Positions 4,128 to 44,278 of a stretch of 64,000 bases of DNA are shown in pieces. Position numbers and translations under genes: made by a program. The notes under the pieces are model-generated. The model made no database searches. It had not been told where the DNA came from and saw only the letters and a program-made list of their open reading frames with translations. Position 1 is the first letter of the stretch; the number at the start of each line of letters is the position of its first letter. The stretch spans positions 16,156 to 80,155 of the forward strand of contig FR899419.1 of NCBI GenBank assembly GCA_000437315.1, read 5' to 3'. This DNA is from Mycoplasma sp. CAG:472 (GTDB lineage: Bacteria > Bacillota_I > Bacilli_A > RF39 > UBA660).

Positions 4128-4688
4128 TTAACAATAAAGATCCTTATTGTATTTATCAAAAGTATCAGTTTCTTTTATTAAATTTTTATTATTAGTATTT
4201 TTTTCTATACAAGCATAAACTCTATTATTATTAGTAAATATTTTAATAGATATCTCATTAACAATTAAACTATCCACATTATTAGTAACTATATTTTTAC
4301 AAAACTCTCCATCTTTATAACCATATTGAGAAGTTTTACTATTAGAGCATTTTGTATAATTATAAAGGTTTGGATTAACAGCTTCTTCAGATTCATAATA
4401 ATCATTTGCTATTAAGTTGCCAATTGTTAATTTGGCCCCTTTTACAGTTTTTTCTACAGTTTCATCCCCATCTTTAACGCTAATTGTTATGTTAAGTGTA
4501 AGTTCTTCTTTATTATCTTCACCCCATTTTTCAGCGGATGATATGGCACTATTTAATTTTTCCTCGAATAGTTTTTTATCCATTTGTTTTCTTACACCTG
4601 TTATACTAGTAACACCAACTAAAGCAATAATAGATATAATAACTATTACTGCCATAAGTTCTACTAAAGTAAATCCTTTTTTATTCAT
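4128..4688 (-). CDS. Type IV pilin/pseudopilin-like protein (prepilin N-terminal cleavage/methylation motif)
   Basis: N-terminus MNKKGFTLVELMAVIVIISIIALVG matches the G/FTLxE prepilin signature plus a hydrophobic helix. No pilus assembly genes are adjacent. Confidence 0.75.
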   Translation of the reverse strand: MNKKGFTLVELMAVIVIISIIALVGVTSITGVRKQMDKKLFEEKLNSAISSAEKWGEDNKEELTLNITISVKDGDETVEKTVKGAKLTIGNLIANDYYESEEAVNPNLYNYTKCSNSKTSQYGYKDGEFCKNIVTNNVDSLIVNEISIKIFTNNNRVYACIEKNTNNKNLIKETDTFDKYNKDLYC

Positions 4689-25900: not shown

Positions 25901-28867
25901 TAAAACATTAATATTTTCTGAGGTAACTGGTTCATTTTTACTTAAATCATCTTTATTAAATGGAAATAATAATTCATCACTTTCTGGAGTAAATTTTAAT
26001 GATAAAGTATACTCTACTACATAAATATGTCCACGTTTTAAAAATTCATAATCAGAAAAATACAAAGTTTTTTCAGGTAAATTATCTGAGGCAGTAAGTT
26101 CAAGTTCATCAGTTATTTTTAATGTATTTGCTTCATCTTTACCATTTGTTATATCATATATTTTATAATTAATCTTTTTAATATATTTTTTAATTGAATT
26201 ATTATTAGTTACTTCTTCTTCATTTTCAGATGTAGTATCCTTTAAGATTGGTGTTATTTTAAGACCAATAGTTGTATCATCCTTTAAGTTTTCATCTTTA
26301 CCAGCATTAGGTATTTGAGTAACCTCTATCGTTGCTTCTCCAGAGGCAAGTACTAAAAGTGAATCATTAATTCTAAATTCAAGGTATCCTGGATCAAATA
26401 CTACTGAATCATTTCCACTTATTCCATTTTTAATAAATATTACATAATTTTTAGATATTATACCATTTTTATGTCTTTCACGAAGCATATCAAGTGTATA
26501 ACCAAAATCCGCTAAAGTAAGTTTCTTTGTTCCATCAAAGTAATCAGCTATAATATTTTCTGTAACATTTATCGAAGATATATGTGAATTATTATATAAA
26601 GTTCCTTCACAAAGTTCTATTTCAAAACTTTTAAAGTTTTCTTTAATAACATCTGCGGTTATACTTTCATCAATTAATTTACTTATTTCAAGATTAACAT
26701 TAACATTAAATATATCCTTAAATGCTTCTTCATCAGTTAATGTAATACTTTCCATATTTGTTTTAACTACATTTGCCTCAGTTGTAAATATCAATGTTCT
26801 ATCTACAAAATTAACTCCTGCAGGTTTTTCTTCATCCTTTAAATCATAATATGCATATAAATCTAATGTGTATTTTGTAGAACTTTTTAGCATTGATAGA
26901 TTAATACTTGCACATTTTGTTGTTTCACTTTCAGATGAAGAACAATCAGTATAAGTAAGAGCAGTAGTATTAACATCTCCACTACTCATATTTTTATATT
27001 CTACATAAATATTTTTAGTTTTATCAATTGTATTATCTGGATCATATATAGTAAACTCTCCAGTTACAGTTGATGCACTTACATAAATATTTTTAGCACT
27101 AATTGTTGGTGTCTGAAGGTTATTCATATTAAATAAAGGACTATTTTCTGTACGATAATCAATATTTTTTTCATTATCATTAATACTTATTATAGCATTT
27201 ACATAATAATTTTTATTTTTTTCTAAAGGCTTTTCAAATTTTAATACTTCCTCAAGGGGTTTATCTTTAGTAATAGTTTTTACTAAATTATCTCCTTCAT
27301 CATAAATATTATATATTACTTTTTTAATTGAATTATTTGGATCTACTACATTTTCTAATTTAATACTTACTGTATAATCTTTTTTATTAACTGTTGCTAT
27401 TACACTAGGCATTATTTGAGTATCTTTAAATGGATTAATTTTTAATGTACTTGATGTTACACTTGCGGCATTACCATCAGGATAAGATATACTTCCATAA
27501 GTAATATCTTCGATTTTAGCAATATATTTTTTATTAGGGTTTAAATTATTAAATGTATGATTTATTTTTTGACCATTATTTTCAAATCTAACGCTTTCTA
27601 CTAAATTACTTTTTTCATCATATAAATTAAGTGTTCCTGACGTAAATGTAGATGTTTTACTTACATTAATGTTATAAGATAAACTATTACTACTTTTATA
27701 ATCAAGTTCAAGAAGTGCTCCAATTTCTGAAGTATTAAATGTTCTTTGGAATAATACATAATCACTTACTACTCCAGTATTACCTTTATATGAAGCATAA
27801 ATTGTTAATATATATTTACTATTACTTTTAAGTCCATCATAAATATATTCATTTATTTTTCCATAAGTTTTATATTCTTTTAAATCAATTACATCACCAG
27901 TTTTAACATTTAATAGTTTTGCATATACTGAAGATGTTATTAAATTATTATCATCAATTACATCAAAATTAATATCTATTTTATGAGAATTTACATTACT
28001 TGATAATAGTCTTACATAAGGAGCTTTTTTATAATCAACAACTGTTTCTACTTGATATCTATCCTCTACTTTAATATTTGGTTTATTAGGTTTAACTGTA
28101 GTATTTCCTGTATTATCATCATCTTTTTTATCATCATATAAAATATCAATATTTTGATCACTATTAATTACTATTTCAGATAAGTTTAATTTAGTTTCAT
28201 TTCCTACACTAATTATTCTTTTATCTAAATCAACTTTTACATTATCAGATGTTAATATGAAGCATTCTGATGCAATAGTTTCAATATTTAATGTTTCATT
28301 TGTTATTCTAACAAGTCCACCATCAATAAATTCAAATTCAAAATAATAGTTTTCATACATATTTTCAGAACTTGTTAATTTAAGTTTTAAGTTTTTACCT
28401 GCTACTATATATTTTGTATCACTAATTCTTCCAATAAAACTACTAAAAGTAATATCTTTATTTTTAGAACTAATTAAATATCTATCATCTTTATAATTAA
28501 TTAAATATTTACTTTTAATATTGTAATAAGAAAGATATTTTTCATTTAAATCATCAAGTGGCATAAGTACACCATCATTTAAAAAACTTATTGATTTATC
28601 ATTATAAAATGCAAATGAATAAATACTTGCAACAGTTTTCTTATCATCTTTTGAAGTAAATATTACATCATCACTATATCCTTTTTTATATTCAGTTCCC
28701 TTTATAAAATAGGCTTTCTCTGGTACATCACTATCGGTTATACTTACATAACCATCACTATAAAATACTGTTTTTTCTTTCAAAACAAATTTATAAAGTG
28801 AAAATACTAAAGCTGCAAAAGTTACTATACTTACTAAAATTATCGTTACAAGGCTTTTATTTTTCAT
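22943..28867 (-). CDS. Giant membrane-anchored surface protein (1974 aa) with many FN3/Ig-like repeats; first gene of the F1-like operon
   Basis: N-terminal TM segment LVTIILVSIVTFAALVFSLY. Recurrent about 90-110-aa modules end in L(K/N)xNxxY.....Y strands (LKSNSKYILTIYASY, LNPNKKYIAKIEDI, LKSSTKYTLDLYAYY, LDENKQYYFIIEYD). Its stop lies 2 nt from the next start. Confidence 0.7.
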   Translation of the reverse strand: MKNKSLVTIILVSIVTFAALVFSLYKFVLKEKTVFYSDGYVSITDSDVPEKAYFIKGTEYKKGYSDDVIFTSKDDKKTVASIYSFAFYNDKSISFLNDGVLMPLDDLNEKYLSYYNIKSKYLINYKDDRYLISSKNKDITFSSFIGRISDTKYIVAGKNLKLKLTSSENMYENYYFEFEFIDGGLVRITNETLNIETIASECFILTSDNVKVDLDKRIISVGNETKLNLSEIVINSDQNIDILYDDKKDDDNTGNTTVKPNKPNIKVEDRYQVETVVDYKKAPYVRLLSSNVNSHKIDINFDVIDDNNLITSSVYAKLLNVKTGDVIDLKEYKTYGKINEYIYDGLKSNSKYILTIYASYKGNTGVVSDYVLFQRTFNTSEIGALLELDYKSSNSLSYNINVSKTSTFTSGTLNLYDEKSNLVESVRFENNGQKINHTFNNLNPNKKYIAKIEDITYGSISYPDGNAASVTSSTLKINPFKDTQIMPSVIATVNKKDYTVSIKLENVVDPNNSIKKVIYNIYDEGDNLVKTITKDKPLEEVLKFEKPLEKNKNYYVNAIISINDNEKNIDYRTENSPLFNMNNLQTPTISAKNIYVSASTVTGEFTIYDPDNTIDKTKNIYVEYKNMSSGDVNTTALTYTDCSSSESETTKCASINLSMLKSSTKYTLDLYAYYDLKDEEKPAGVNFVDRTLIFTTEANVVKTNMESITLTDEEAFKDIFNVNVNLEISKLIDESITADVIKENFKSFEIELCEGTLYNNSHISSINVTENIIADYFDGTKKLTLADFGYTLDMLRERHKNGIISKNYVIFIKNGISGNDSVVFDPGYLEFRINDSLLVLASGEATIEVTQIPNAGKDENLKDDTTIGLKITPILKDTTSENEEEVTNNNSIKKYIKKINYKIYDITNGKDEANTLKITDELELTASDNLPEKTLYFSDYEFLKRGHIYVVEYTLSLKFTPESDELLFPFNKDDLSKNEPVTSENINVLKEVPTVYMFAWESAENFITYKYEIIDKDKAINNNDFNLYYSVNEDEVINPSESVTCPKPLRAYNASAYKCAKINNLNNADNYKIHVNVKLIESDTYESSYALVNEKVFNGISPLEMSYNILKTENKLMHNNLLIMKLTGQTSKVASYNLILSDGSSTFKIENINNNKTEGFLDAIGGNKITYTKGSETKTWNYTGYDKNNDLLHTAYIGTCEEDLCLYLDYSKLYYSNTFGSVFESYKNKNITVTLEGLYDTGKVGFLGNTSKKYAFVKSETGEYVLLFDRNFTLSQNAIGAYYPFTSGGYFVDDDEPGAGSNTYANNNYFIGNIYFKNLASRYFANKNEIFYERKVDYKVNEKGVTIYLNKDYEAIDIKELGTSEISSLDNTFTYENVVPSLKINLVSPTINGAKINMQISGIKESDIDNEDNVKYLYLEVGNNTLKINKDELTSQSGVVNGNSYVIKTYSNYLLNLKSVKVDNKVVTDYKYDYLTKTIKFNDEEYSGKKIDITYEITLYGLDINTEYNIKAYMMISGKKVYLTDSSSTLYETFNYTFKTLSEADVKVTDASFDINSKDDYSQRLLNLNYNISDIMGIKSVDYEICADGVCATNIQNCSDDNYNVLGGSTCAKSNKYDMSASFDITGDSFIFGKDYQTKLTAKVDTPSGEKEIVIYNSGVSVRSLNAPNLDVIKASHYNTTSGYYLNFKIAFNDPDKVVTSGNYKAYLAILQNGEYKVVSGSEEVKNIFSSNNKTRYNNLDENKQYYFIIEYDTYINNNGTTALEHHFDRYLMFTLNNYHINTGLVQYIADNYVGEDQNIYGETTLRFGYAANIMKDNVPLEPDEDYVEQEAYVVGITYAINSIESSVGNIYISGTKMFDELSTDEDDKIIYITGSTESSVVGDSYYQILLRHNGTKGQNANAYAYTDELLLRSAGYNIVYKFYLGGAITKDLNTEEKCIANAASNKWNADKNECYILGSENNATTRTEDKKRG

Positions 28868-28897
28868 ACATCTTACCCTTTCTTATCATACATAATT

Positions 28898-28926
28898 ATT
28901 TTATCAAAACTATGTTACTTATTCAA
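28898..28926 (-). promoter_or_regulatory. Candidate sigma-A promoter of the 12-gene F1-like operon
   Basis: Minus strand TTGAAT (28926-28921), 17-nt spacer, TAAAAT (28903-28898), about 30 nt upstream of the ATG at 28867. Confidence 0.45.
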
Positions 28927-28954
28927 GTAATTGATTATATTTTTTTATAAAAAA

Positions 28955-28980
28955 ATCGGCTTCACATAGCGAAGCACGAT
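28955..28980 (-). terminator. Conserved hairpin after DGR target 1 (copy 1 of 2); here followed by a T-run
   Basis: Minus strand ATCGTGCTTCGCTATGTGAAGCCGAT followed by TTTTTTTAT. A near-identical 26-nt copy lies at 32523-32548. Confidence 0.6.
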
Positions 28981-28983
28981 TTA

Positions 28984-30108
28984 TTATCCAAGCATTATTT
29001 TATATGGATTACCCTCAGAACCATCTCCTGAAACAACATATACATTAGATTTAAGATATAAGACTGGCCTAACTGCATAACCGTAATACGCATAGTTGTT
29101 GTAGAGACCGCCGGTGCCAGAGACGTAAACAGGGAGAGAAGAACTGTAGGCCGTCATTGTCCATTCATATCCCTTTGTAAATAACCAATTATTTTTATAA
29201 CCATTATTCACTGCATAACCATAATCACTTGCATACATTAAACCTATCTTTAAAGTAGTACTAGTTTGGCTTGTTTTTTCTTTATCATATTGCGTTTTTC
29301 CCGTGGTTGATGTTGAACCAGAAACGCCAATATTCCAATATACACCATCATATATCATATTATAATAGTCTCCACTTAAGGCTATACCATTTTGCGTATA
29401 ATCACATTTAGCAACCGGTTTTTGTGAACTACTATAATATGAATAACAATAAGCTGCACAGTCACTATTATTTCTACTATTAATTTTTAAAAAGCATTCA
29501 TTTAAATTCTTTTGAATTGTACTTCCTACCCAAGTTGAACTAGATGTAGTATCTGCATTATAGACTAGGCCTCCAATTGAATCATTTCTTATTATTTTAA
29601 CAAGTCCATTATTATTCCAAGTTTTACACGTACCGTCAGTATTTACTGCTGTACATACTGGTGTTTTACCAATTATTCTATAAAGCTCTTTATTATGCCA
29701 AATATAATTATTAGGATTATTTCCTTTATATCTAACTCCGTAATCAGATTTATATAAAAGTCCATTTCCACTTACTTCTCCAGAAGTACTTGTTGTATTA
29801 ACTACATTAGAAAGAAGTTTAGGATTACTTGTAAATGATACATTACAAGAAACATTTCCAGTTATATTTTTAATATCTAATTTCCAATTATCTATATCCC
29901 ATACTCCATCAGCATTATCACAAGTTATATCTACTTGATATAAACCTTTACTAGGAAATGTATTAGATACTTTACCATTTACAAGTAATGCAATTGTATT
30001 TCCATTATAGTTAAATGTATTTTTAGGTTTATTACCAATTATTAATAAAGTACATATCATTATAACAATTAATGATACACATATAACAATCTTTTTATTA
30101 TTTTTCAT
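28984..30108 (-). CDS. DGR target protein 1: membrane-anchored surface protein with a C-terminal variable region
   Basis: N-terminal TM segment. Shares the central module RYKGNNPNNYIW..LYRIIG and the C-terminal WTMTAYSS..[VR]..GYAVRPVLYL..SGDGSEGNPY with the 572-aa paralogue. VR1 lies at 29071-29151. Confidence 0.8.
   Translation of the reverse strand: MKNNKKIVICVSLIVIMICTLLIIGNKPKNTFNYNGNTIALLVNGKVSNTFPSKGLYQVDITCDNADGVWDIDNWKLDIKNITGNVSCNVSFTSNPKLLSNVVNTTSTSGEVSGNGLLYKSDYGVRYKGNNPNNYIWHNKELYRIIGKTPVCTAVNTDGTCKTWNNNGLVKIIRNDSIGGLVYNADTTSSSTWVGSTIQKNLNECFLKINSRNNSDCAAYCYSYYSSSQKPVAKCDYTQNGIALSGDYYNMIYDGVYWNIGVSGSTSTTGKTQYDKEKTSQTSTTLKIGLMYASDYGYAVNNGYKNNWLFTKGYEWTMTAYSSSLPVYVSGTGGLYNNYAYYGYAVRPVLYLKSNVYVVSGDGSEGNPYKIMLG
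29071..29151 (-). repeat. DGR variable repeat VR1
   Basis: Aligns base-for-base with the TR at 30527-30607. All 15 mismatches fall on plus-strand T (coding-strand A) of the TR. Encodes SSLPVYVSGTGGLYNNYAYYGYAV. Confidence 0.9.
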
Positions 30109-30367
30109 TTAATAACCTTCTTTCTAATATATTAATTAAATTTATTTTAAAATAATAATTTAAATAATTATTATTTTCATATTCTTTTTTTACAATAATA
30201 TCTAAATTATCTAATATTATATAATTAATTTCATACTTATTTAAATTTCTATTTATATAATTAAATATTATCTTATCTTCATCAAAAGTATAATATTTAT
30301 TATTTTTAATTATTAATATTAAATAATTTTGATAAATATGTTTTAAAACATTATATCTTTCTTTCAT
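30098..30367 (-). CDS. Small ORF (89 aa), possible truncated MutS-domain-I-like (MSL-like) paralogue
   Basis: NNKYYTFDEDKIIFNYINRNL...INYIILD loosely parallels RGKFYQCKNTDAYIMNLLFGY...ISYQIIE of the 147-aa MSL-like protein. Overlaps the target 1 start by 11 nt. Confidence 0.35.
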   Translation of the reverse strand: MKERYNVLKHIYQNYLILIIKNNKYYTFDEDKIIFNYINRNLNKYEINYIILDNLDIIVKKEYENNNYLNYYFKINLINILERRLLNEK

Positions 30368-30379
30368 ATTATTTTATTA

Positions 30380-30418
30380 GATGTCGATAGAAAGAGTACG
30401 TATACTCTTTCGTCCATC
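30380..30418 (-). promoter_or_regulatory. Long imperfect hairpin in the spacer 3' of the TR
   Basis: GATG..GAT.GAAAGAGTA-CGTA-TACTCTTTC.GTC.CATC: about 17 paired positions with a 4-nt loop. It is relatively GC-rich for this genome. Confidence 0.5.
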
Positions 30419-30526
30419 TATTATCTTTTAAAAGTATAATACTTTTAAGGAAAGTTTATGTTTCTTATGCTTAACACTTTATAGCCATAACCATAAAACC
30501 TAAACCAAACATAAGAAGCTATAAAA

Positions 30527-30607
30527 AACTGCATAACCGTTATACGCATTGTTGTTGTTGAGACCGCCGTTGTTATTGACGTTAACAGGGTTAGAAGAAC
30601 TGTTTTT
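30527..30607 (-). repeat. DGR template repeat (TR)
   Basis: Non-coding. Starts 23 nt downstream of the RT stop. The coding-sense reading is AAC/AAT-rich (N SSS N PV N V NNN GGL NNNN AY N GYAV). Matches VR1 and VR2 except at adenines. Confidence 0.9.
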
Positions 30608-30630
30608 CAAAAAACTTCCCTATATTTATA

Positions 30631-31692
30631 TTAATAGTACCTATCTATAATATGATTTATTTTATCCTTATTTACAAAATTATAACTATGAAAATAATTT
30701 TCTAAAGAATAAAAATATTTTTCAAAAGTAATCATATTATTTTGATACATATAAATACCTTTCTTAATACCTTTTTTTATATTATTTCTTGCATTTTCAC
30801 TGAAATTAATAATAGTTTTATTATTAATAATTCTAAAATTATAACCTAGAAAATTAAAACCATTTTTTAAATTTACAATATAAGTTTTCTTTTCATTTAT
30901 TTCTAAATTATAAGAATGAATAAAATCTATTATTTTATTTTTACATATTTTTAAATAGTTTAAATCATTTGAAAATATTACATAATCATCCATATATGAA
31001 AGCATATATTTTAAATGCAAATCATGAATTATATAGTGATGTAATTTATATAAATAAAATATAGCAAAAAACTGTTGAACTTGGCCTCCCAAAGAAAGTC
31101 CTACACCATTTTTATATCTAGGTAATTTTTCATTAACTTCTTTTTCTAATATATCTATTTTATCATTAATATAATCATAATTAGTACTATCAATTATTTT
31201 ACAAACTAAATTATATTCTTCATTAGTTAAAACATTTATTATTAAAGATTTTAAAATATTATGATCAATAGAATAAAAATATTTTTTTATATCAATTTTT
31301 AAAACATAAATATCTTTATTAAAATGTTTTAACTTTTCAATATCAGAAAGTAATAATTTAATAGCATATGTAAGTCCCATACCTTTCCTTGTTGCAGTAA
31401 TTTCCTTACATAGATATTTTGATAGTTTAGGAATCAAAATATATTTTGCTACATAATGATTAATAATTTTATTAATAATACTTTCACTCATAACAACCCT
31501 AATTTTAGGTTCTCTAACTAAAAATATATTATAACTACTACCTTGATATAAACCATTTTCTAAAATATATTTTATATAAACTAAATACTCTATTTTACAT
31601 TTTTCAAATGCAAGAATTTTCTTTCTATTTTTCACTCCTTTCAATATCTCATTATTATATATATCTAATAAATCACTTATTTTTACTATCAT
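30631..31692 (-). CDS. DGR reverse transcriptase (353 aa)
   Basis: RT motifs: LKIDIKKYFYSIDHNIL, TRKGMGLTYA, GLSLGGQVQQFFAIFYL, YMDDYVIFS (YxDD), LGYNF. Small size, no maturase or endonuclease domains, flanked by Avd and the TR. Confidence 0.9.
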   Translation of the reverse strand: MIVKISDLLDIYNNEILKGVKNRKKILAFEKCKIEYLVYIKYILENGLYQGSSYNIFLVREPKIRVVMSESIINKIINHYVAKYILIPKLSKYLCKEITATRKGMGLTYAIKLLLSDIEKLKHFNKDIYVLKIDIKKYFYSIDHNILKSLIINVLTNEEYNLVCKIIDSTNYDYINDKIDILEKEVNEKLPRYKNGVGLSLGGQVQQFFAIFYLYKLHHYIIHDLHLKYMLSYMDDYVIFSNDLNYLKICKNKIIDFIHSYNLEINEKKTYIVNLKNGFNFLGYNFRIINNKTIINFSENARNNIKKGIKKGIYMYQNNMITFEKYFYSLENYFHSYNFVNKDKINHIIDRYY

Positions 31693-32062
31693 AATCTATC
31701 TTATTATCTAACCATTTATTACTCATTCTATTTATTTCAGATAACTTATATGAAATCTTTTTCAATGAAGTTTCTGCAATATAACCTTTAATAAATAATC
31801 TTTCTATAATGTAATCAATAGTATTTATAAGTGAATTTATTTCTACTTTATATGCACTTATCAATTTATAATTATCTTCATTATTAGTTTTATTTATAGA
31901 ATATAATAATTCTATAGATAATTCCTTTAACTTATTTTTATAAAAATAATCTTTTTTAGGAATATTTTCTATTATCTTATCGAGTATATTCATAAAATCT
32001 TTATACTTAGTTAATATTAAAAATTCTTTAGATGATGCATTATTTTCTAAGTTCATTTTCAA
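31673..32062 (-). CDS. avd: Avd-like accessory variability determinant (four-helix-bundle protein, 129 aa)
   Basis: Size, all-helical character and position immediately upstream of the RT (20-nt overlap). Pattern IENIPKKDYFYKNKLKELSIELLYSI ... IDYIIERLFIKGYI is typical of Avd / 23S-IVS four-helix-bundle proteins. Confidence 0.7.
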   Translation of the reverse strand: MKMNLENNASSKEFLILTKYKDFMNILDKIIENIPKKDYFYKNKLKELSIELLYSINKTNNEDNYKLISAYKVEINSLINTIDYIIERLFIKGYIAETSLKKISYKLSEINRMSNKWLDNKIDYDSKNK

Positions 32063-32483
32063 TTAAACCTATTATTTGTTCAAGTTTTTCATCACAGCAT
32101 CTATTTAAATTGTCAATTAAATAATCTAATCTTTTTCTTTTATCTAAATTTTTTAATGCTAAATCTAAATATTTTGGATAATTATTAAGTTTATCAAAAT
32201 CCTTAATAATAGGATTTTTATCTACCTCAATAATTTGATAAGATATTTTAGCATCTTCCAAAGTATTTAATACTTTGGATAAACTATTATCAGGAAATCC
32301 GCATAAACCATCTTTGAGTACTTTATAACCAAATAGTAAATTCATTATATAAGCATCAGTATTTTTGCACTGATAAAATTTACCACGATTTTTATAAAAT
32401 ATCAAAAATGACTTTACATTAGTAACCCCCCCCCCCGATTTTACATTGTCTTTACATACGTTTACGTTTTTAAATAATTTCAT
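32040..32483 (-). CDS. MutS-domain-I-like small protein (MSL-type DGR accessory, 147 aa)
   Basis: RGKFYQCKNTDAYIMNLLFGYKV..GLCGFPDNSLSKVLNTLEDAKISYQIIE parallels MutS mismatch-binding domain I (GDFYELF..DA......L......aGvP......yl..L...G..vai.EQ). Overlaps avd by 23 nt. Contains a G11 tract at 32426-32436. Confidence 0.6.
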   Translation of the reverse strand: MKLFKNVNVCKDNVKSGGGVTNVKSFLIFYKNRGKFYQCKNTDAYIMNLLFGYKVLKDGLCGFPDNSLSKVLNTLEDAKISYQIIEVDKNPIIKDFDKLNNYPKYLDLALKNLDKRKRLDYLIDNLNRCCDEKLEQIIGLIENELRK

Positions 32484-32522
32484 TTTAACCTTCCTTTCAA
32501 ATTATTTAATCATTTATTTTAA

Positions 32523-32548
32523 ATCGGCTTCACAATGCGAAGCACGAT
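32523..32548 (-). promoter_or_regulatory. Conserved hairpin after DGR target 2 (copy 2 of 2), no T-run
   Basis: Minus strand ATCGTGCTTCGCATTGTGAAGCCGAT. Differs from the 28955-28980 copy only in two loop bases. Lies between the target 2 stop and the msl-like start. Confidence 0.55.
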
Positions 32549-32555
32549 TTATCGA

Positions 32556-34274
32556 TTACATTCCCAAAGTATATGGACTCGCCATTGTTCCATCACCAGA
32601 AAGTTTGCTTACATTAGATTGTAGATACAAGACTGGCCTAACTGCATAACCGTCATACGCATTGCTGTAGTTGAGACCGCCGAAGTTATTGATGCGAACA
32701 GGGTTAGAAGAACTGAAGGCTGTCATAGTCCACTCATAACCTTGACCGAATAGCCAATTATTAACCATTTGACTATTAGCACTCGAATAACTCAAATTTC
32801 CTGTGTAACCACTTATAGCATAGCCAAAATCACTTGCATACATAAGTCCTATCGAAGTATTTTCTGAAGTTTGTTTAATTATCTCTTTGGCATAAAAATT
32901 ACTTGATGACAAACTATATGAACCAGCAATTCCAGTATTATAATAAACGCTTTCTACCATATTACCATAACTATCATTTTCATTAATGCCATTTTGTGAG
33001 TAATTACATACACCTTGAGTAGTTTGATAAGCATAACAGTATTTATCACAACCATCTTTTTTACCTAAATAACAAGAATTTAAAAGTCCTTGAACTGTAC
33101 TTCCAATCCACACTATAGGATTTGATGAACTATAATTTGATTTATTATAGGCAAAAGCTCCAATTGGGTCTGCTTTAATAATTTTTACTCTATTTTCCCA
33201 TTTAGTACACTGTGCTTCCCCTTGTTTAAATTCTATTCCATTAATAGTTGTATCCTCGGTTACTGGAGAAACTTCTAAACATACGGGTACATAACCTATT
33301 ATTCTCCATAATTGATTATTAAAGGATACATAGTTATTTGGATTATTACCTTGATATCTATATTGCTCAGTACCATTATCTGTTACTTTTGTTATTACTC
33401 CATCTCCTGAAGTACCTACACCTCCTGTTATAACACTTGATAAAAGTGTTCCTGTAGTATTTGTAGTTTTAGTAAGAGTTGCACTACCGCCATCATTAAC
33501 TTCATTTTTAATAGATATCATTCTATTAATATTATTCCATTCTATATTCGAAGAAGTTATACCATTTAAATTAGATAATGAATAATTACTATTAGGATTA
33601 TTATATGGTAAATCTGTTACATTTATATTTATTTGATTAATAGCCTCTGTTTGATAACATGTTACATTAGCTACTTTAAATGTACCTTTATAAGTTTTAT
33701 TTATTAAATTAGATTGATCAAATGCTAAATTATAAAATTTTGTATTTATTGTCCAATTATGTAATGAAGGACTACCTTTTTTAGAATTAGATATTTTAGC
33801 ATTTTTTACAACAGTCATATTTGCAGAAGGAAAATCATCTTCACTCATAAATTCATTATTACCTACTTCAGGTCCTATTACTTGTAATGTAAATTCTTTA
33901 AAAGTACCTGCTGTTTTAGAGGTATATTTATCTGATGAACTATCATAATTAAATATAATATCATAAGTACATGTTACTCCTGTTTTAGTGGTATTTGCAT
34001 CTAAACTTACATTTAATGTACTTGTATTACTTGCTATATAAGTAGTACTAGTTTCCTCAGTCATATTATAAGGATCCACTGTTATAGAAAAATTTGTTGT
34101 ATTGGTATCAAGTACTGCATTATCTATTTTATTTGCAGTTATATTTACATTCATAACATTATTTAAATCAATATTAAATATACCTAAATATCCAAAAGAT
34201 ATTGCTATAGCAAGTATTAAAGTAACTGCTATTGATATTATAATAATCTTCTTTTTATTTTCTATCTTTTTCAT
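32556..34274 (-). CDS. DGR target protein 2: SipW-signal surface protein with a C-terminal variable region (572 aa)
   Basis: N-terminus ...AIAISFGYLGIFN, central module RYQGNNPNNYVSFNNQLWRIIG, C-terminus WTMTAFSSSNPVRINNFGGLNYSNAYDGYAVRPVLYLQSNVSKLSGDGTMASPY. VR2 lies at 32640-32720. Confidence 0.8.
   Translation of the reverse strand: MKKIENKKKIIIISIAVTLILAIAISFGYLGIFNIDLNNVMNVNITANKIDNAVLDTNTTNFSITVDPYNMTEETSTTYIASNTSTLNVSLDANTTKTGVTCTYDIIFNYDSSSDKYTSKTAGTFKEFTLQVIGPEVGNNEFMSEDDFPSANMTVVKNAKISNSKKGSPSLHNWTINTKFYNLAFDQSNLINKTYKGTFKVANVTCYQTEAINQININVTDLPYNNPNSNYSLSNLNGITSSNIEWNNINRMISIKNEVNDGGSATLTKTTNTTGTLLSSVITGGVGTSGDGVITKVTDNGTEQYRYQGNNPNNYVSFNNQLWRIIGYVPVCLEVSPVTEDTTINGIEFKQGEAQCTKWENRVKIIKADPIGAFAYNKSNYSSSNPIVWIGSTVQGLLNSCYLGKKDGCDKYCYAYQTTQGVCNYSQNGINENDSYGNMVESVYYNTGIAGSYSLSSSNFYAKEIIKQTSENTSIGLMYASDFGYAISGYTGNLSYSSANSQMVNNWLFGQGYEWTMTAFSSSNPVRINNFGGLNYSNAYDGYAVRPVLYLQSNVSKLSGDGTMASPYTLGM
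32640..32720 (-). repeat. DGR variable repeat VR2
   Basis: Aligns with the TR at 30527-30607. 12 mismatches fall at TR adenines (coding sense) and one does not (32693). Confidence 0.9.
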
Positions 34275-34547
34275 ATAATTACTTTCCTATCTTTACTAAT
34301 TTATCATACCATAATAAAACTACTTTTCCAAGTAGTTAAGTTATAAAAATTTAAATTTTAGTAGTTAAATGAACAAATAATTAAAATTGAAATATATTTT
34401 ATTGTTTTAACTCCCTTAATATTTTTTCTTAATTTTATCTATATCAGTAAAAAATAAATTAGTTCCCCTTTGTTTTAAACTTATCATATTCTTAAATAAA
34501 CTTTTTATTTTGAACTTATTTGTATAAACCATAAAATGTCTTTATCA

Positions 34548-34649
34548 TTAACAGTAAAATAAGTTTCTTTTGTGATTTTTCATTAAAGTATCATTATCTA
34601 CAATATCAAAATACTCATCTTTTATATGATATAAATAACCTTTTTTAAT
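34548..34649 (-). pseudogene. Possible degraded ToxN/AbiQ-family toxin N-terminal stub
   Basis: The frame after the terminator reads (I)KKGYLYHIKDEYFDIVDNDTLMKNHKRNLFYC then two stops. It resembles the FY.v...Y..fl...D..v start of ToxN/AbiQ toxins. No ATG, and the rest of the gene is missing. Confidence 0.3.
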
Positions 34650-34674
34650 TTTCTAACGTGTCGCCTCCACTCGC

Positions 34675-34827
34675 AAAAGAAAACCTCATCTTGCGATGAA
34701 GTTATCTAATATTTTCAACCAGGATCATTTATTAGTCGCACCACCTGGAAGCGAAAAACATTGTCGACTGGAATCATTTATAAGCCGCACCATCCATAAG
34801 CGGCTAAACATTTTCACACTTTTAAGT
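34675..34827 (-). ncRNA. Candidate type III antitoxin-like RNA: two pseudoknot repeat units + terminator
   Basis: TTGATA-17-TATATA promoter (34862-34834). Unit 1 (34804-34768) and unit 2 (34755-34719) are 37-nt repeats with a 49-nt period. Compensatory changes occur in both the hairpin stem and the loop-to-tail pairing. These are followed by CTTCATC-GCAA-GATGAGG and TTTTCTTTT. Confidence 0.5.
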
Positions 34828-35215
34828 GCAATATATATACTACATTTATGTAAAAATATCAACTAATAACAAGTTTTATTATAGTGTATATTATAGTATA
34901 TTTATTAAAATATATTGTGAACAGCTCTAAACTCTTGTGAATGCGCCAATTCAAACGAATTGGTGCTATATATAATTAAAATTATATATTATAATTTTAA
35001 AATATAATTACCTAGCCTATCACATTTTGTTTTGAAATTTTAATATAATGGATCACTTCTTAATTTTAATTTAGTTAGTTACAATTTGTAACCATCTTAT
35101 TTTTTTTATCTATGTTTTAATAGCTTTTATTCAAATATTTTTTACTTTGCTTCAATTTCTAATTCATCTTTATATTCATAATTTAGTCTGTTTTGTTTAG
35201 TAATTACACTTTCTC

Positions 35216-35815
35216 CTAAATTTTTTCTATGTTCTCTTTTGCAATTTTTGCTGTCATACCAGACCATTCTTTATAGATTTCATTAGTTAGTATAGCATAT
35301 TCTTTTCCATCAGTTATACCACCATCTTGCCAAACATCAGTTAATTGTTTTCTATCTTGAATTCCTTTTAATCTTTTTGCAATCCATTTTTCATCATAAC
35401 CTTTAGCACGATATATATCTACAGCTCTTTGAGCAGCAATAGATGGATCAAATACTTCATCAATTCTTTCACTTCCAAGTTTTGCAAGCCATTGTTTTAT
35501 TGGCTCAGCATTCTTACTAGGAATAGATTCAATTATTCTAAACATTTCTTCAATATCACATACATCTGTAAGTCGATATTTACCATCTTGAGACTTTAAT
35601 TTCAACTGTCCGATTTTTTCGGACACTTCATTTCCCTCTTGTTTTAGTTTATTTTTTAGGTCGCTCCAATATTTTCGTGGTCTATCACTTTCTGATATTA
35701 CCCCAACTATATCAACAACACTAATATAATATTTTTCTTTTTCCTTATCCCATACAGTTCTTATTGTTTCATTATTAAAAATTTTATTAATTAAATGCAT
35801 TTTATCTTGATTCAT
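35216..35815 (-). CDS. Bro-N/antirepressor-like (DinD-like) protein, probably C-terminally truncated
   Basis: FNNETIRTVWDKEKEKYYISVVDIVGVISESDRPRKYWSDLK is a Bro-N-type N-terminus. The protein ends abruptly after EWSGMTAK, where homologues as I recall them continue. Confidence 0.55.
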   Translation of the reverse strand: MNQDKMHLINKIFNNETIRTVWDKEKEKYYISVVDIVGVISESDRPRKYWSDLKNKLKQEGNEVSEKIGQLKLKSQDGKYRLTDVCDIEEMFRIIESIPSKNAEPIKQWLAKLGSERIDEVFDPSIAAQRAVDIYRAKGYDEKWIAKRLKGIQDRKQLTDVWQDGGITDGKEYAILTNEIYKEWSGMTAKIAKENIEKI

Positions 35816-35856
35816 TTTTAACCTCCCATTTCTTTTAGAATTTAGATAATTTTTAT

Positions 35857-36480
35857 TTACGACAGCAAATCAATATAATTCATTACCACCTTCTTTATAC
35901 CAAACTTTTCAGCATATAAATATAGTTTAACAAAATCTTTGTCTTTTCTTTTTATATACTTTTTTAAACAACTTTTAACTAGGTTAAAGTCCATTCTATT
36001 TTTAGATCTAATAATATCACATATACATCTTTCAATATCATATACTTTTATTTTATTACCCATAGGTGTTTCTATTTCAGTAAGACCAAGTTCATAAATA
36101 TCATTATTTACATAAAATACATTATGTTTTCTTAAATGAGCACTATTATAACTTTTTTTTACTGTTATGTCATACACACAATTTGGTGATTTTGTAGATA
36201 AACCATGAAAATATAAAGCAGTCATATGTGAAAATATTGCATTAGGCATACTTAATCCAAAAATATAATAATTATCTTTTTTAATATTAACATCAATATA
36301 AATACCTGGTGCAACTTTTTTTATAATACCCTTATCTTGCATAATTGATAGATACATTCTATGTAAATCAAACATATCAAGTTCTTTAGAAGTAATATAT
36401 CCTTTATTTTTTTTCATAAGTTCTTTAATAATTTCAATATTACTTTTATCTTGAAATTCTTTCATAGTTATTTTTTCCAT
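35857..36480 (-). CDS. AbiEi-family type IV TA antitoxin-like transcriptional regulator (orphan)
   Basis: N-terminal wHTH GYITSKELDMFDLHRMYLSIMQDKGIIKKVAPGIYI is typical of AbiEi_4. No AbiEii nucleotidyltransferase gene follows. Confidence 0.6.
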   Translation of the reverse strand: MEKITMKEFQDKSNIEIIKELMKKNKGYITSKELDMFDLHRMYLSIMQDKGIIKKVAPGIYIDVNIKKDNYYIFGLSMPNAIFSHMTALYFHGLSTKSPNCVYDITVKKSYNSAHLRKHNVFYVNNDIYELGLTEIETPMGNKIKVYDIERCICDIIRSKNRMDFNLVKSCLKKYIKRKDKDFVKLYLYAEKFGIKKVVMNYIDLLS

Positions 36481-36604
36481 TTAATATCACCTTTGACTTT
36501 CTTACTACCAATATAACATTATCAAGTGATTAAGTCAATAGTATATTTTGCATACTATTTCAAAATAAGAATAAATATTTTAAACTAAAACAAAAATTTT
36601 TCAA

Positions 36605-36630
36605 ATAAAAAAAGCAGAAATTAATCTGCT
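36605..36630 (-). terminator. Rho-independent terminator after tig
   Basis: Minus strand GAGCAGATTAATTTCTGC followed by TTTTTTTAT. Confidence 0.7.
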
Positions 36631-36644
36631 CAAAAGTTAATATA

Positions 36645-39386: not shown

Positions 39387-41162
39387 CTATTCAATCACAA
39401 ACGGTGAAGTATAACTGCCATCTCCAGAAACATATTCAATATTTGGTTTCAATGATACAGCAGGTTTTACACCAAATGGAATGGTACTATCCTGTGAACT
39501 AATTGAATCATTCCATAATGCTTTAATTAAATTATATGGCTGATATGTTGAAGCACTATTTGGACTAATAGTCCAAAAGTCATTTCCATTTAAATAACTA
39601 TCTTTAACATCTACATCTTTATTTGCAAGCATAACCTCACTTAAAGACAACATTGCTATAGGATAAATCAATTTAGCTTTTACATTTTTCATACTAAATC
39701 TATCAGTTTCATTAGCACATGCTAAACTATAATTATATGTATTAAAATCAACACTTACATTTGTTCCAGTGGTTACACTTTCATTAGTATCAAAAAAACC
39801 CTTTGATTTAATTGTTCTATTATTGCAAAAAACAGTATCCTCAAGTTTTTCTTCATAATTTTTTAAATTGTTTTTATACCAATTATCTATATATGCTTTA
39901 ACTGTACTATCGTATTTGTTTACATCGTCTGCATACAGCATTTCATTTAAGGCATCGTCCACAGATTTGCCTCCAGTTAAAGATATATAATATGCTCCAC
40001 CATTATTAGCTAATAAAACATAATAAATAGATTCACAAGTTGTGCTAGAATTAAAGCAAGTGTAATGTGTATTATTTATTGTATTATATTCATTCGACCA
40101 ATCATTTATAGTTTTGGTGTTATTTAGTGTATAAGTACCATTGGTATAAGTAAATGATTTTCCCAAAACTACACTTGACTCTGATGATAAATTTTTAATA
40201 GAATATGTATAAACTGTATTATACATGTACCCAACATATGCTGGAGAATTAGAGCTACTATTAAAGGCACTTCTTCCTATTTGCGAATCCGTTCCAGTGT
40301 TATTACAAGAACCATCTTTTTGTACACCATTATATACTATTTTTACTCCACCAGTTTCTGTTGTTCTTACTATCTTCCAACAAAAACCACCAAATAATAA
40401 ATTATTATTTTGGGCAGCACCATGATAATAGTATATACTATTATCATAAGTAGTATTATCACCGTATTCAGTTGGATTATACAATTTAACATGTTCATCA
40501 CCATTTTCATATTTATTACTAATAGTTTGATAAAGTCGCAAATCAAAAGTATTTGTTCCACTTCCTAATGTTAAATAAGCATTTAAAGATTTGTTCATAG
40601 TGGAGCCATTACCTAAACTTCCTTCATCTTTATCTATCCATAAATATAAATTATATGTTTTAGTTCCAGAACTAACTGTTCCACTTCCTACACTAAATCC
40701 ATTTTTTAATGTTTCATTTTTAATAGCTAATAATTGTTTTTGAATAGTACTATCTAATAAATATTCATTTGATATAAGTGTTCCAGTTGTTGGAGTAACT
40801 CCTTCCTCAACTAAAGCATATTTTAATGCTTTAATTGGCATTGTATTAGAACTATTTGGTACAAGAAGTAAATTAAATGATTGACTAGTATTACAATTAT
40901 TTGTTATAGTAACTGAAGTTTTATATGTATTAGAACTTAATGCTTTTTTATCAGATATAGGTACAGCATATTCATTAGATATTGTAATATTATCTGAGGA
41001 TAACTGAAGTGACATACAAAGTGCTGCCCCATTTATTGTAACATTAGTATTTGCATTATTATTAGAACTAGTAACCTTAAAAAATGCGTAAGAAATAGAT
41101 ATTCCTGTACACATTACAAGTAATATTAAAATTGCTGTTAATGTTTTTTTATTACTATTCAT
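39387..41162 (-). CDS. Surface protein paralogue with SipW-type signal peptide (591 aa), not DGR-targeted
   Basis: N-terminus ...CTGISISYAFFKV (cf. the TasA/camelysin GGTYAYFSD class). Central FCWKIVRTTETGGVKIVYNG and AYVGYMY. C-terminus FGVKPAVSLKPNIEYVSGDGSYTSPF. No TR-like sequence. Confidence 0.7.
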   Translation of the reverse strand: MNSNKKTLTAILILLVMCTGISISYAFFKVTSSNNNANTNVTINGAALCMSLQLSSDNITISNEYAVPISDKKALSSNTYKTSVTITNNCNTSQSFNLLLVPNSSNTMPIKALKYALVEEGVTPTTGTLISNEYLLDSTIQKQLLAIKNETLKNGFSVGSGTVSSGTKTYNLYLWIDKDEGSLGNGSTMNKSLNAYLTLGSGTNTFDLRLYQTISNKYENGDEHVKLYNPTEYGDNTTYDNSIYYYHGAAQNNNLLFGGFCWKIVRTTETGGVKIVYNGVQKDGSCNNTGTDSQIGRSAFNSSSNSPAYVGYMYNTVYTYSIKNLSSESSVVLGKSFTYTNGTYTLNNTKTINDWSNEYNTINNTHYTCFNSSTTCESIYYVLLANNGGAYYISLTGGKSVDDALNEMLYADDVNKYDSTVKAYIDNWYKNNLKNYEEKLEDTVFCNNRTIKSKGFFDTNESVTTGTNVSVDFNTYNYSLACANETDRFSMKNVKAKLIYPIAMLSLSEVMLANKDVDVKDSYLNGNDFWTISPNSASTYQPYNLIKALWNDSISSQDSTIPFGVKPAVSLKPNIEYVSGDGSYTSPFVIE

Positions 41163-41406: not shown

Positions 41407-44278
41407 TTATCTAATGTGATATGGATTTGTACTTGTTCCTTCTCCTCCAGCAATACTTAATTCTTTAGAGTCAAGATAAAATACAGGTCTATAATTATAT
41501 TCATCAGTTGAATCTATTCCAGAGGCTTGTATATATCCTTGTCTTCTTATTATGGATACGTTATTATCATTTTCACTGCTTGGAGAAATAAGCCATTCAT
41601 CAACATTTCCACCAAATGTATCAAGTTGAGATTGATATAACCAATTGTTATCTAAACAAGTTTGATTATTATTTAATTCAAATAATTTTGTTGATTGACA
41701 TCCTTTTGCAGCATAACCATAATCACTTGGATACATAAGTCCAACATAGCCGAAAAGATATGGTGGATTTGAAGAATAAACTGCACTTGTATTTCTTTCT
41801 ATTGCATACATATTTGCTGCTGTAACCTGTTCCCAATTATATGTGGAACTATTTGCTCCTCCTAAATGCCATTTAGCTTGTGCCATACCATTATGTTGAT
41901 TTGCAAATTTTGAATGAAATTCACTTATATTAAATAAGTTACCTAAATAATCATTATTTATCGTAGTAGCAATATCAGATTGTTCCCAGTTATTTAAATT
42001 ATAGTTATTTGTACTTACTGTACTTGCTGCCCACCTACTAGTACCATAATCGGTTGTAGAAATTATTTTTAATAATTTTGATTTACTATTATTCATAATA
42101 CTACTACCAGTAAGTTCTTCTTCAAATAATCCAATTATTCTAAATAATAACTCTTTATTAGAACAACTACCAGTTGTATTATTATCTAAACATATATAAT
42201 TATTTGGATTAGCCCCTTCATATCTTATACCATTATGATTAAACAAATCGTTATTATTTGCAACGAATGTAGTATCAAATGATGTTCCAAGAAGAACAAC
42301 AATTTCTTGAGTAGTTGTATTACCTTTTGCATCTTTTACCCATAAATAATTTCTTCCCTCTTCTTGAACATTAGTATTTAAATTATAAGATTTTCCACTT
42401 ATTGAAACCCAGTTTTTTGGTGTACTAGTACTTTTACTAATTGCATAACCAGTAAGACCTTTTTCACCACTAAGTGTTGCTGTAACATTTTTGCCACTTA
42501 TACTTATATTTTTTACTGTTGGTTTATCGCTAGCTACTTCATATACATTATTCCAAGTTCCATCACCGATTAAATTAGCATCAGAGGATAGAGAAACTAC
42601 ACCACGGACCCCAACATTGCTATTGACAATGCCAACGTTCAGAGCGCCATCACCACGCACAACGAACCCACCAGCAAAAGAACTACCACCGAAAGCACGA
42701 GGGGAGCCCGCCCAATAATAATCTCCAGTATATAAATAAAAACTATTATTTGCTTTTCCTGTTGGTAATCCAGCAAAAGTTATTTCATCCGCTGATATTA
42801 ATCCCACTGGATAAGATAACTTACCATTACCCTTGACTGTTGTTGTTGTAAATTTATCACTGGCTACTGGACATATGTAATCAGGTGACACTGGATTATT
42901 CCATACTCTACCATTCGCTCCATAAAAATATCGTGTTCCCTTTGAATTCCAACTTGTTAAGGTTGTATAATTTGTAGTTGAATATGCTACATTTGAAGTC
43001 GATGCTGTTCTATCATTACAATATATTTGATCCGTTATTTTTGTTCCTGTTTTATTTAAATCTGTATAGTTTGCATACCAATTATCTAAATATGTTTTTA
43101 TATCACTACTTTGACTTGTTCCATGTTGTTTTCCTATTTCATACATATACCCTACATATTCTGCACTATTATATTTTTGATTAAAAGGACTATTTCCTAA
43201 TGAGACTTTCATTAAATTGACTATTTCCTAATGAAGTATCTTCTGTTTTTATTACCTTTGTACTTTCTGTTGGTGCTTTTACACCACTATATATCATTCT
43301 TATTGAACCATCACCATTTATTCTAATTATTCGCCAATATATATCATCACCACTTGATGCTATTTTTGTGCATGAATTACCTGTATCCGTAGCAGATATC
43401 GTACCATTATTACAATTATACATGTCTTTAGTATACTTACCATATTTTACCCAGTTATTATCTACTGCTCCTCTGAAATAATAAGATGTTCCTAAATCAT
43501 CTTGTGCTGAATACATACCCTTATCACTTGCGGTTGTTACTGTACTAAAATCTGGTTTTGGTTTACTTTCTATTTGCGATTTAGCCTCCGCTACGGAAGA
43601 AGCACCAGTACTTTTTAATAATACATAATCTCCACCTAGTATTTGCTCATTAAATGAACAATTTGTATTGGCTACTTTAATATTACCTTTAAAAGTTTTA
43701 CCAACTACATTATCTTGAATAACATCTAAATTATAATATTTAGCAGTAAAAGACCATTTTTCTAAAATATTTGTATCTGTAGAAATTTTTATACCACTTA
43801 TTAATGTAACTGCACTAGAACCCGATACATCTATTTCACTAAATGAATTTCCTTTATCTGAAGTACCACTTAAAGTAAATTCTTTTAAACCTGCATTTGT
43901 TGCTCCACTACTTGGAGTATATGCTGTACTTGGAATATATACTAAATCATAACTACAATATACTTTTTTAAGTCCATTTGTATTAAGTGAAACATTAATA
44001 TTACCACCATTTCCACTTACAAAAGAACTATAATCATTACTAGCATTTGCCATATCTAAATCACTTTGATTTATAGTTAATGATAAAGTGCTATTACCAC
44101 TACTTTCAAATGTATAATATTTAGTATTAATATTACCCGATATAGTATTATTATTTTTAATTTCTATATTAAAGAAATATGCATAAGAAATACCTATAAT
44201 AATTGTTACTACTAATAAAACACCAATAAATATTAATATTCCTACTCTATTTTTAACTATTTTATCTTTTAATTTCAT
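41407..44278 (-). pseudogene. Surface protein paralogue split into two ORFs (43190-44278 and 41407-43212) by an imperfect 31-nt tandem duplication
   Basis: The N-terminal ORF has a SipW-type signal (IIIGISYAYFFN) and ends ...TSLGNSQFNESLIRK*. The C-terminal ORF starts MKVSLGNSPFNQKYNSAEYVGYMY. Deleting one 31-nt copy fuses them in frame. The C-terminus also carries the YLWVKDAKGN Ig-like module and ends YNYRPVFYLD..GGEGTSTNPY. Confidence 0.7.
43183..43244 (-). repeat. Imperfect 31-nt tandem duplication (25/31 identical, 16-nt perfect core)
   Basis: The plus-strand core GACTATTTCCTAATGA occurs at 43198-43213 and 43229-43244. Coding sense: TCATTAGGAAATAGTC-AATTTAATGAAAGTC / TCATTAGGAAATAGTC-CTTTTAATCAAAAAT. 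Confidence 0.85.

Follow-up and report, generated by a model that had tools for sequence, protein, structure and literature searches.

Does the uncultured gut bacterium catalogued as Mycoplasma sp. CAG:472 carry a diversity-generating retroelement (DGR) that is at work in present-day populations and, if so, what does it diversify and how might it be controlled? The locus in question occupies positions 28955-34274 of a 64-kb stretch of contig FR899419.1 (64,000 nucleotides (nt), hereafter the window, from whose first letter all coordinates are counted). A preliminary description of these letters had proposed a DGR with one template repeat (TR) and two variable repeats (VRs) in paralogous surface proteins. 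Our analysis leaves little doubt that the locus is a chromosomal, currently active DGR of an uncultured human-gut Bacilli bacterium with a low content of guanine plus cytosine (GC).

The repeat finder returned a single three-copy family of 76 nt, aligned without gaps and made up of the TR (30527..30602), VR1 (29071..29146) and VR2 (32640..32715), all on the minus strand. A TR-derived pattern with N at each adenine occurs at exactly these three sites in 64 kb and at none in 100 shuffles, so that the ungapped three-way repeat first described is borne out; the same search detected no further remote VR in the window. Both VRs lie inside the 3′ part of coding targets, VR1 spanning codons 321-346 of the 374 in target gene 1 and VR2 the equivalent codons of target gene 2 (572 amino acids (aa)). 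The TR lies outside, in the intergenic RNA between the reverse transcriptase (RT) gene and a small open reading frame (ORF), ORF89. It is non-coding, holds 24 adenines and in the VR frame reads NSSSNPVNVNNNGGLNNNNAYNGYAV, with AAY codons at 11 of 26 positions, as had been noted of its AAC/AAT composition. Over the 76 nt, every VR1 mismatch to the TR falls at a TR adenine (11/11, hypergeometric P = 4e-7), as do seven of the eight VR2 mismatches, the eighth being a G>A change (P = 1e-3).

The preliminary description had used an 81-nt repeat, and in those coordinates its mismatch counts are reproduced: VR1 differs at 15 positions, all on plus-strand T, and VR2 at 13, with 12 on T and one C>T. The 76 nt of that span are secure, while its last 3-5 nt (30603-30607, AAAAA in the coding sense) are unproven as repeat. 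Their counterparts in the VRs (GCCTA and GCCTT) are fixed across all alleles recovered, and codon 320 (AAA versus GCC) shows background variability only among 120 homologues, with codon 321 (AAC in the TR) moderately variable. This leaves 76 nt (30527-30602) as the secure repeat. The true 5′ boundary of the TR probably lies at 30602-30604, i.e. the repeat may extend to 78 nt.

The exact RT protein of the window is encoded on 23 public contigs, ten of which, from different samples, were compared as assembly consensus sequences. Nine of these contigs share one and the same TR. Among the contigs identical in both RT and TR, each VR occurs as four alleles, with 20 variable sites in VR1 (19 at TR adenines) and 19 in VR2 (18 at TR adenines). 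Taken together, 37 of the 39 variable sites fall at TR adenines (P about 1e-11 to 1e-12), and for 22 of the 24 TR adenines at least one allele has another base. The 400 nt upstream contain no variable site for VR1 and a single one for VR2, and the 100 nt downstream contain none. Contig L010 shares the VR2 allele of the window but has a different VR1, and the VRs have therefore been rewritten independently and recently. Because VR alleles differ at TR adenines while the RT, the TR and the flanks are constant, these natural populations indicate that the element is active on both targets. The adenine-restricted alleles supply the A-site polymorphism that the preliminary description had named as a check, and support its reading of the three repeats as a DGR.

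The same positions stand out over longer distances. A search with the target 1 module gave more than 120 separate 90%-identity clusters, 85-94% identical. Across 120 homologues the entropy amounts to 0.1-0.4 bits per column along the protein and reaches at least 3 bits, with 11-14 residue types, exactly at residues 325, 328, 330-332, 336-339 and 342, which correspond to the AAY-templated codons. Metagenome-assembled genomes (MAGs) of other species contain related cassettes with the same two-VR layout and A-biased mismatches. One Hadza-gut Bacilli MAG has two complete cassettes (L011 and L015; CAKONK010000001.1 and CAKONK010000008.1), whose RTs share 97% and 85% identity with the window RT, respectively; each cassette has its own TR and two VRs.

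The one contig with a deviating TR, L006 (7060-7328), encodes an RT protein identical to that of the window together with a different TR (…AACGGAGGGCATTGGCGGGCTCAACACCACC…), which resembles the TR (4339-4411) of L014, a species-level relative. This suggests mosaic exchange or TR evolution independent of the RT; a misassembly across the TR/VR repeats may also be the origin.

The order of the cassette genes, target2-msl-avd-RT-TR-spacer-ORF89-target1, is on the ORF map as initially described, with every gene on the minus strand. The RT (30631..31692, 353 aa) has a YMDD catalytic box and matches Pfam RVT_1 at 1.5e-16. Its best PDB sequence match is the RT of a Bordetella phage (bRT, 8ub7, 7e-13), with a group II intron RT at 8e-7. 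A profile of the RT family (19 members) gives 4.4e-29 for bRT 8ub7, 1e-15 for group II, 3e-12 for RT-Cas1 and about 1e-8 for retron enzymes. This places bRT far above both retron and group II intron RTs, in line with the DGR type assigned beforehand. The motif 4 signature of DGR RTs is [I/L/V]GxxxSQ, and the family sequence GLPIGNMxSQ aligns with GIPIGSLTSQ of bRT. The avd-like gene (31673..32056, 127 aa from ATG, isoelectric point (pI) 9.05) overlaps both msl and the RT gene. Its product has the position, size and basic pI expected of Avd, and a bAvd match occurs at the same position in all related contigs; a PDB search with the Avd-like protein sequence gave no match.

What is diversified is the C-terminal end of two membrane-anchored proteins. 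Target 1 (28984..30108, 374 aa) consists of an N-terminal membrane anchor, a small beta domain and a C-terminal DUF6273-type C-type-lectin-like module with VR1. Target 2 (32556..34274, 572 aa) is likewise membrane-anchored, is longer in its N-terminal region and ends in the same lectin-like module, which here holds VR2 and is 53% identical to that of target 1. The hydrophobic N-terminal anchor of both proteins fits surface display. An AlphaFold2 (AF2) model of target 1 residues 95-374, built from a 63-sequence alignment, is confident (predicted local distance difference test 92.3, predicted template modelling score 0.92) and places VR1 in the C-terminal strands, at model residues 227-252. A Foldseek search of this model against the PDB gave one strong match, the immunoglobulin A (IgA) peptidase of Thomasclavelia ramosa (9qa6, E 4e-8 over 313 columns), followed by the C-terminal domain of Legionella Lcl (DUF1566) and a long series of C-type-lectin-like folds. 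In the depositors' description, the 290 N-terminal residues of the T. ramosa IgA peptidase form a C-type-lectin-like core of double size that is related to Lcl (PMC12237041). Among viral models, the best matches are phage proteins annotated as 'DUF6273 domain-containing' (probability 1.0).

By sequence, the match to the family is weak. Target 1 reaches 14.9 bits against Pfam DUF6273 (E 0.024; cut-off 23.5) and target 2 gives no match. Among the homologues, 9 of 63 match (best E 3e-5), some relatives have a precomputed PF19789 match, and a target-module profile run against PDB sequences returned nothing useful. The module is widespread, with 2173 clusters at 50% identity and E <=1e-3. Judged by modelled fold and remote homology, and not as a scored member of the family, the variable module is predicted to be a DUF6273-type enlarged C-type-lectin-like domain. 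The initial suggestion that it resembles a DUF6273-like domain rather than a C-type lectin thus draws a false contrast, while the structure prediction proposed as a check has given a C-type-lectin-like fold with the VR in its C-terminal strands. Phage DGRs that diversify a C-lectin-like DUF6273 domain, and have the VR at the C-terminal end of it, have already been published (PMC10743442, PMC11792537).

Two further paralogues had been described as non-diversified, and indeed neither contains a TR-like sequence. The first (39387..41162, minus strand, 591 aa) has the same C-terminal module at 25% identity. The second (41407..44278, minus strand) is split by a frameshift into ORFs 43190-44278 and 41407-43212, which makes it a pseudogene unless the assembly is in error. 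The frameshift (43190-43235, minus strand) lies beside an imperfect direct duplication of ~26 nt (…SLGNSQFNES / SLGNSPFNQK…), and the downstream part encodes two lectin-like modules.

The TR is embedded in a structured RNA. The non-coding stretch between the RT gene and ORF89 measures 263 nt, and its 159 nt 3′ of the TR (30368..30526, minus strand) form a module analogous to the spacer (Sp) in the DGR of Bordetella phage BPP-1. Helices P1/P2 (30462-30517) are followed by the 3′ arm AAACUUUCC (30449-30457) of a TR-bracketing duplex, whose 5′ arm GGGAAGUUU (30612..30620) lies 10-18 nt upstream of the TR. Hairpin P3 (30428-30448) adjoins this 3′ arm and is followed by an A-rich stretch and then by a 9-bp stem capped by UACG (30390-30411) within an outer stem (30379-30422). 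RNAalifold on five lineages found compensatory changes in the RNA 3′ of the TR. A covariance model (R1) matched in 52 of 92 sources, once per locus, with 139 bits for the window. In the resulting alignment 96.6% of cells are paired, compared with 71% when shuffled and about 50% in slid registers, and 20 of 21 pairs show double-sided changes; as the alignment was fitted to the covariance model, these pairing figures lean its way. A test of the GGGAAGUUU/AAACUUUCC duplex that is independent of the model found all 9 positions paired in 47 of 50 loci, through 15 or more different covarying sequence pairs, against an average of 6.9 pairs for shuffled 9-mers. The single-sequence minimum free energy fold contains the same helices, including the TR-bracketing duplex (z = -3.8).

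At a permissive threshold Rfam has no family at 28800-34500, and a strict-motif search found the UNCG hairpin in 19 of 75 loci. Handa et al. (2024) described a TR-flanking duplex, a stem-loop with adenosines after it and a ~9-bp tetraloop-capped stem-loop that binds Avd (207/278 Avd-containing DGRs), and all three types of element are present here. By analogy, the helices would have the corresponding roles, including recruitment of the RT and Avd. In more distant cassettes (RT 44-52% identical; L045, L048, L051, L064, L075, L076, L078 and others) the order is TR-RNA-msl-avd-RT. As TR and RNA are both found upstream of msl there, the RNA travels with the TR, and to judge from gene order the pair behaves as a movable module.

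These TR-RNA-msl-avd-RT cassettes yielded no detectable homologue of ORF89. In the window, ORF89 (30098..30367, minus strand) encodes a small basic protein of 89 aa (pI 9.0); its start is a few nt from where the DGR RNA ends, and the ORF runs into the beginning of target 1. Divergent cassettes have counterparts of 43-49% identity at this place; ORF89 follows the RNA directly in about 28 loci, including copies in L011, L013, L015 and L026 that were missed by the hidden Markov model search and recovered by direct translation. The protein has no Pfam or NCBIfam match. ORF89 is a candidate for an additional DGR accessory gene. For the idea that it is a diverged MSL paralogue there is no more than a hint: hhalign aligned its residues 11-38 with the MutS-I-like core of MSL (22-50) at a probability of only 4.6%, and a Pfam match is lacking.

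TR/VR homology stops at GCAGTT; beyond it stands TTTTATAGC in the TR but AGGCCAGTCTT in the VRs. The preliminary description had read a 29-nt element shared by the two VR flanks as consistent with an initiation of mutagenic homing (IMH) site. The element does follow both VRs, but it encodes VRPVLYL(K/Q)SNV, the peptide that the family conserves best (RPV.YL motif), and changes synonymously in relatives. Because of this peptide a DNA-level signal is inseparable from coding constraint, and the role as IMH is a possible one. GC-rich inverted repeats immediately follow the stop codons of both targets, at 28953..28982 after target 1 (repeat D19, -14.5 kcal/mol, then a T-run) and at 32521..32550 after target 2 (-16.1 kcal/mol), with the same stem and loops UAU and AUU, respectively. 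In divergent cassettes other, unrelated GC-rich stems take up this position after the stop, and such a post-gene hairpin is absent from both non-diversified paralogues. These repeats are candidates for the DGR target hairpin/cruciform, for a terminator, or for both. They resemble the VR-proximal hairpin/cruciform that Guo et al. (2011) described in phage DGRs, with a 7-10 bp stem and a GRNA loop, 4-34 bp from the VR.

A further cassette gene bears on how diversification might be controlled. msl (32040..32483, minus strand, 147 aa) is a MutS-domain-I-like accessory gene. MSL is a published class of DGR accessory protein, a small MutS homologue of 112-283 aa encoded with avd (Wu et al. 2018, PMC5758913), and the window MSL agrees with this class in size, homology and position beside avd. 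The family keeps the motif GKFY(Q/E)..DA..GFPD, and 12 of 16 MSL homologues match Pfam MutS_I (best 7.4e-6). The top PDB match of the family profile is the MSH6 mismatch-binding domain (E 0.17), aligned over GKFYE..DA..GFP; a single-sequence PDB search gave noise only.

Codons 16-20 of msl contain a run of 11 G (32426..32436, minus strand), in frame (ON) in the window allele. With the ON/OFF state taken as tract length modulo 3 within groups of identical flanks, same-species tracts range from 6 to 11, and these flanks keep the frame only at 8 and 11. The runs comprise 6 G in L011 and L027, 7 in L002, L006 and L007, 8 in L008, 9 in L031, 10 in L004, L005, L009, L024, L026 and L052, and 11 in the window, L001, L003 and L010. 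L005 has the VR1 allele of the window but G10, not G11, which is a hint at switching within a clonal population. In the out-of-frame lengths translation stops after 21-22 codons. A second msl subgroup, with lengths 11, 8, 8, 8, 9, 9, 7 and 6, likewise includes both in-frame and out-of-frame alleles. The tract also occurs in L013, L015, L019-L023, L028, L034, L036, L038 and L040, and further in L068, L070, L073, L091 and L096; it is absent from more distant MSL genes. The list of MSL homologues holds many clusters of 100-109 aa alongside full-length ones. As in a contingency gene, a long 5′ coding run thus toggles the frame through its length among close relatives. The DGR literature searched contains no link between DGRs and homopolymer phase variation, nor mention of an msl poly-G tract.

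From its position and its allelic lengths, the poly-G tract is a probable slipped-strand on/off phase switch on MSL. A wider claim is put forward tentatively, as a real possibility: that the tract acts as a true contingency switch, stochastic, heritable and reversible, that gates or alters hypermutation, and that ORF89 is a further undescribed component of the cassette. The strongest competitor holds that the length differences represent sequencing or assembly noise, or neutral slippage, and that the tract is no DGR switch; in one variant MSL is made anyway, for instance because RNA polymerase or the ribosome slips on the G-run or because translation begins at an internal ATG, codon 47. All lengths do derive from consensus assemblies of short reads, in which long homopolymers are prone to miscalling, yet the same length recurs across independent samples of one VR genotype (G7 in L002 and L007; G11 in L001, L003, L010 and the window). 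Neutral slippage has to contend with G10-11 at the same place in cassettes whose MSL proteins are only 41-48% identical, in genomes of 22-27% GC, and with the fact that the window tract is the sole G/C run of at least 8 in 64 kb. Interrupted, 'locked' versions of the tract are found in L027 and L039. OFF lengths outnumber ON lengths even though the VRs are diversified in those strains, and gene callers predict a 101-aa product from the internal start; the 46 residues lost in OFF alleles, however, include the invariant GKF motif. On balance we regard this explanation as unlikely, though far from negligible.

Could the whole element, rather than its switch, be a decayed relic whose TR/VR pattern records past activity only? 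The out-of-frame msl of many assemblies, the loss of its start codon in one MAG (L011) and the departure of the window RT from the SQ motif would all be in keeping with decay. Set against them is the fact that contigs which agree in RT protein and TR, and differ at 0-1 sites per 400 nt of flank, nevertheless hold four alleles per VR. The change in VR1 of L010 must moreover be very recent, since its VR2 allele is that of the window, and the RT, avd, RNA and TR are all intact and conserved. A relic is in our view highly improbable. Still less credible is that the VR differences arose through recombination or gene conversion among paralogues, or through ordinary diversifying selection, instead of TR reverse transcription: four paralogues do lie within 16 kb and the targets are 80% identical around the VR, but the variable sites match the adenines of a non-coding template, non-adenine VR positions and flanking codons are invariant, the non-diversified paralogues lack a TR-like segment, and complete RT/Avd/RNA machinery is adjacent.

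Some observations nonetheless count against an active DGR of the proposed kind. Every VR comparison was made between assembly consensus sequences, not reads, and one VR2 allele and one VR1 allele each include a non-adenine change. Motif 4 of the window RT (residues ~198-208) reads LGGQVQQ, with QQ for the canonical SQ and a family consensus of IGNMxSQ; because population VR alleles are diversified at adenines, this deviation is evidently compatible with adenine mutagenesis. The Avd-like protein scores below curated cut-offs for both Pfam bAvd (3.6e-7, 31.1 bits; cut-off 40) and NCBIfam DivGenRetAVD (3e-7, 30.7 bits; cut-off 80), and the window MSL matches Pfam MutS_I weakly (E 0.058). TR-VR homology ends abruptly on the 3′ side, with no recognisable IMH/IMH* pair, and the inverted repeats after the stop codons, at a distance of 84-87 nt from the VR and with loops of 3 nt, depart from the hairpins of the phage DGRs studied so far.

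The active DGR is set in a chromosomal context. The window has a GC content of 25%, and the cassette is flanked by genes for trigger factor, a XerC-like recombinase and GreA, with the same position in other contigs. A prophage origin was considered and is countered by these flanks and by the same chromosomal position elsewhere. The closest genomes are MAGs from the human gut that bear the labels uncultured Bacilli, Bacillales UBA6448 and 'Mycoplasma sp.'. In the interval from target 2 to trigger factor (34275-36640) the gene content differs by strain: the window has Bro-N-like and unknown ORFs, L002 and L007 an extra 155-aa ORF, and L006 AlbA_2/HATPase_c_4 genes. This stretch appears to be a small variable island adjoining the DGR. 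Directly downstream of target 1, a 1974-aa membrane-anchored protein (22943-28867, minus strand) with no Pfam match on record contains internal repeats at 318-nt spacing (27272/27590; repeat families D5, D7 and D13), and it is kept beside the cassette in related contigs.

A mechanism can be proposed in which the TR-carrying transcript folds such that a 9-bp duplex brackets the TR, and the downstream helices, including the 9-bp UACG-capped stem-loop, recruit an RT-Avd complex. The RT would copy the TR into cDNA, misincorporating opposite adenines, and this cDNA would take the place of its 76-nt homologue, the VR at the 3′ end of one or the other paralogous target gene. About 11 AAY-templated codons would thereby be randomised on the C-terminal face of a surface-displayed DUF6273-type C-type-lectin-like domain. 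MSL, a homologue of the MutS mismatch-binding domain, may act on the cDNA:VR heteroduplex, in which case slipped-strand mispairing at the 5′ poly-G would turn MSL on and off and thereby affect how efficient diversification is or what it yields. Priming in cis, the role of Avd and the mode of cDNA integration are attributed here by analogy with the BPP-1 element.

The DGR itself is ordinary in kind, and what may be new in it is confined to the poly-G tract of msl and the conserved ORF89. It nevertheless provides a clean natural example of a chromosomal element with two targets that is active in human-gut populations of an uncultured, reduced-genome Bacilli lineage, and the covariation in about 50 loci independently confirms RNA elements that had been inferred from cryo-EM of BPP-1. 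If the poly-G tract is indeed a switch, it would constitute a stochastic, heritable and reversible gate on targeted hypermutation, and the ON/OFF msl alleles in public metagenomes would offer a first handle on the role of MSL in DGRs. Natural in-frame and out-of-frame msl alleles beside scorable VRs make this role, and the restraint or timing of DGR activity, testable.

The prototype DGR of Bordetella phage BPP-1 (mtd-avd-TR-brt) has an RT from the same clade with a partner of the Avd type, adenine-specific transfer of information from TR to VR and a VR at the C-terminal end of a ligand-binding protein with a C-type-lectin fold. The two also share a TR set in structured RNA (a duplex around the TR, a hairpin with A's after it, and a 9-bp stem-loop under a tetraloop) and an inverted repeat downstream of the VR. 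They differ in that the BPP-1 element is phage-borne and the present one chromosomal; the order is avd-TR-RT there and avd-RT-TR here; and the present cassette has two flanking targets and additional msl and ORF89 genes. A recognisable (GC)14/IMH-IMH* pair is not seen here, the post-VR hairpin lies 84-87 nt away with a 3-nt loop, and the TR measures 76-78 nt compared with 134 nt.

The avd-RT-TR order, MSL, the two targets and a DUF6273 target, which the preliminary description had in part singled out as less usual, have all been published. Wu et al. (2018) described avd-RT-TR as architecture B2, MSL cassettes as architecture D, and multiple targets (PMC5758913). Architecture D (e.g. the Legionella pneumophila DGR) and B2 likewise encode a small MutS-like protein with avd, place the TR downstream of the RT and diversify lectin-like surface-displayed targets, there of the DUF1566/CLec2 type (PMC5758913). 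Here the host is a gut Bacilli bacterium of about 25% GC, the module is DUF6273-type and not DUF1566, and msl has a conserved 5′ poly-G tract. Phage DUF6273 DGRs (tentaclins; Faecalibacterium prophages Lelie, CP11, Roos and Pioen) also have the VR at the C-terminal end of DUF6273, and two targets per cassette occur there too (PMC10743442, PMC11792537). Their targets are tail or receptor-binding proteins, whereas those of the window are membrane-anchored cellular proteins that score below the Pfam threshold. Finally, the msl tract resembles the poly-G contingency loci of Campylobacter, Neisseria and Bordetella in being an early coding G-run, strongly over-represented for base composition, that toggles the frame between close strains. 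In those loci the switched gene is a surface or modification gene, whereas here it would be an accessory factor of hypermutation.

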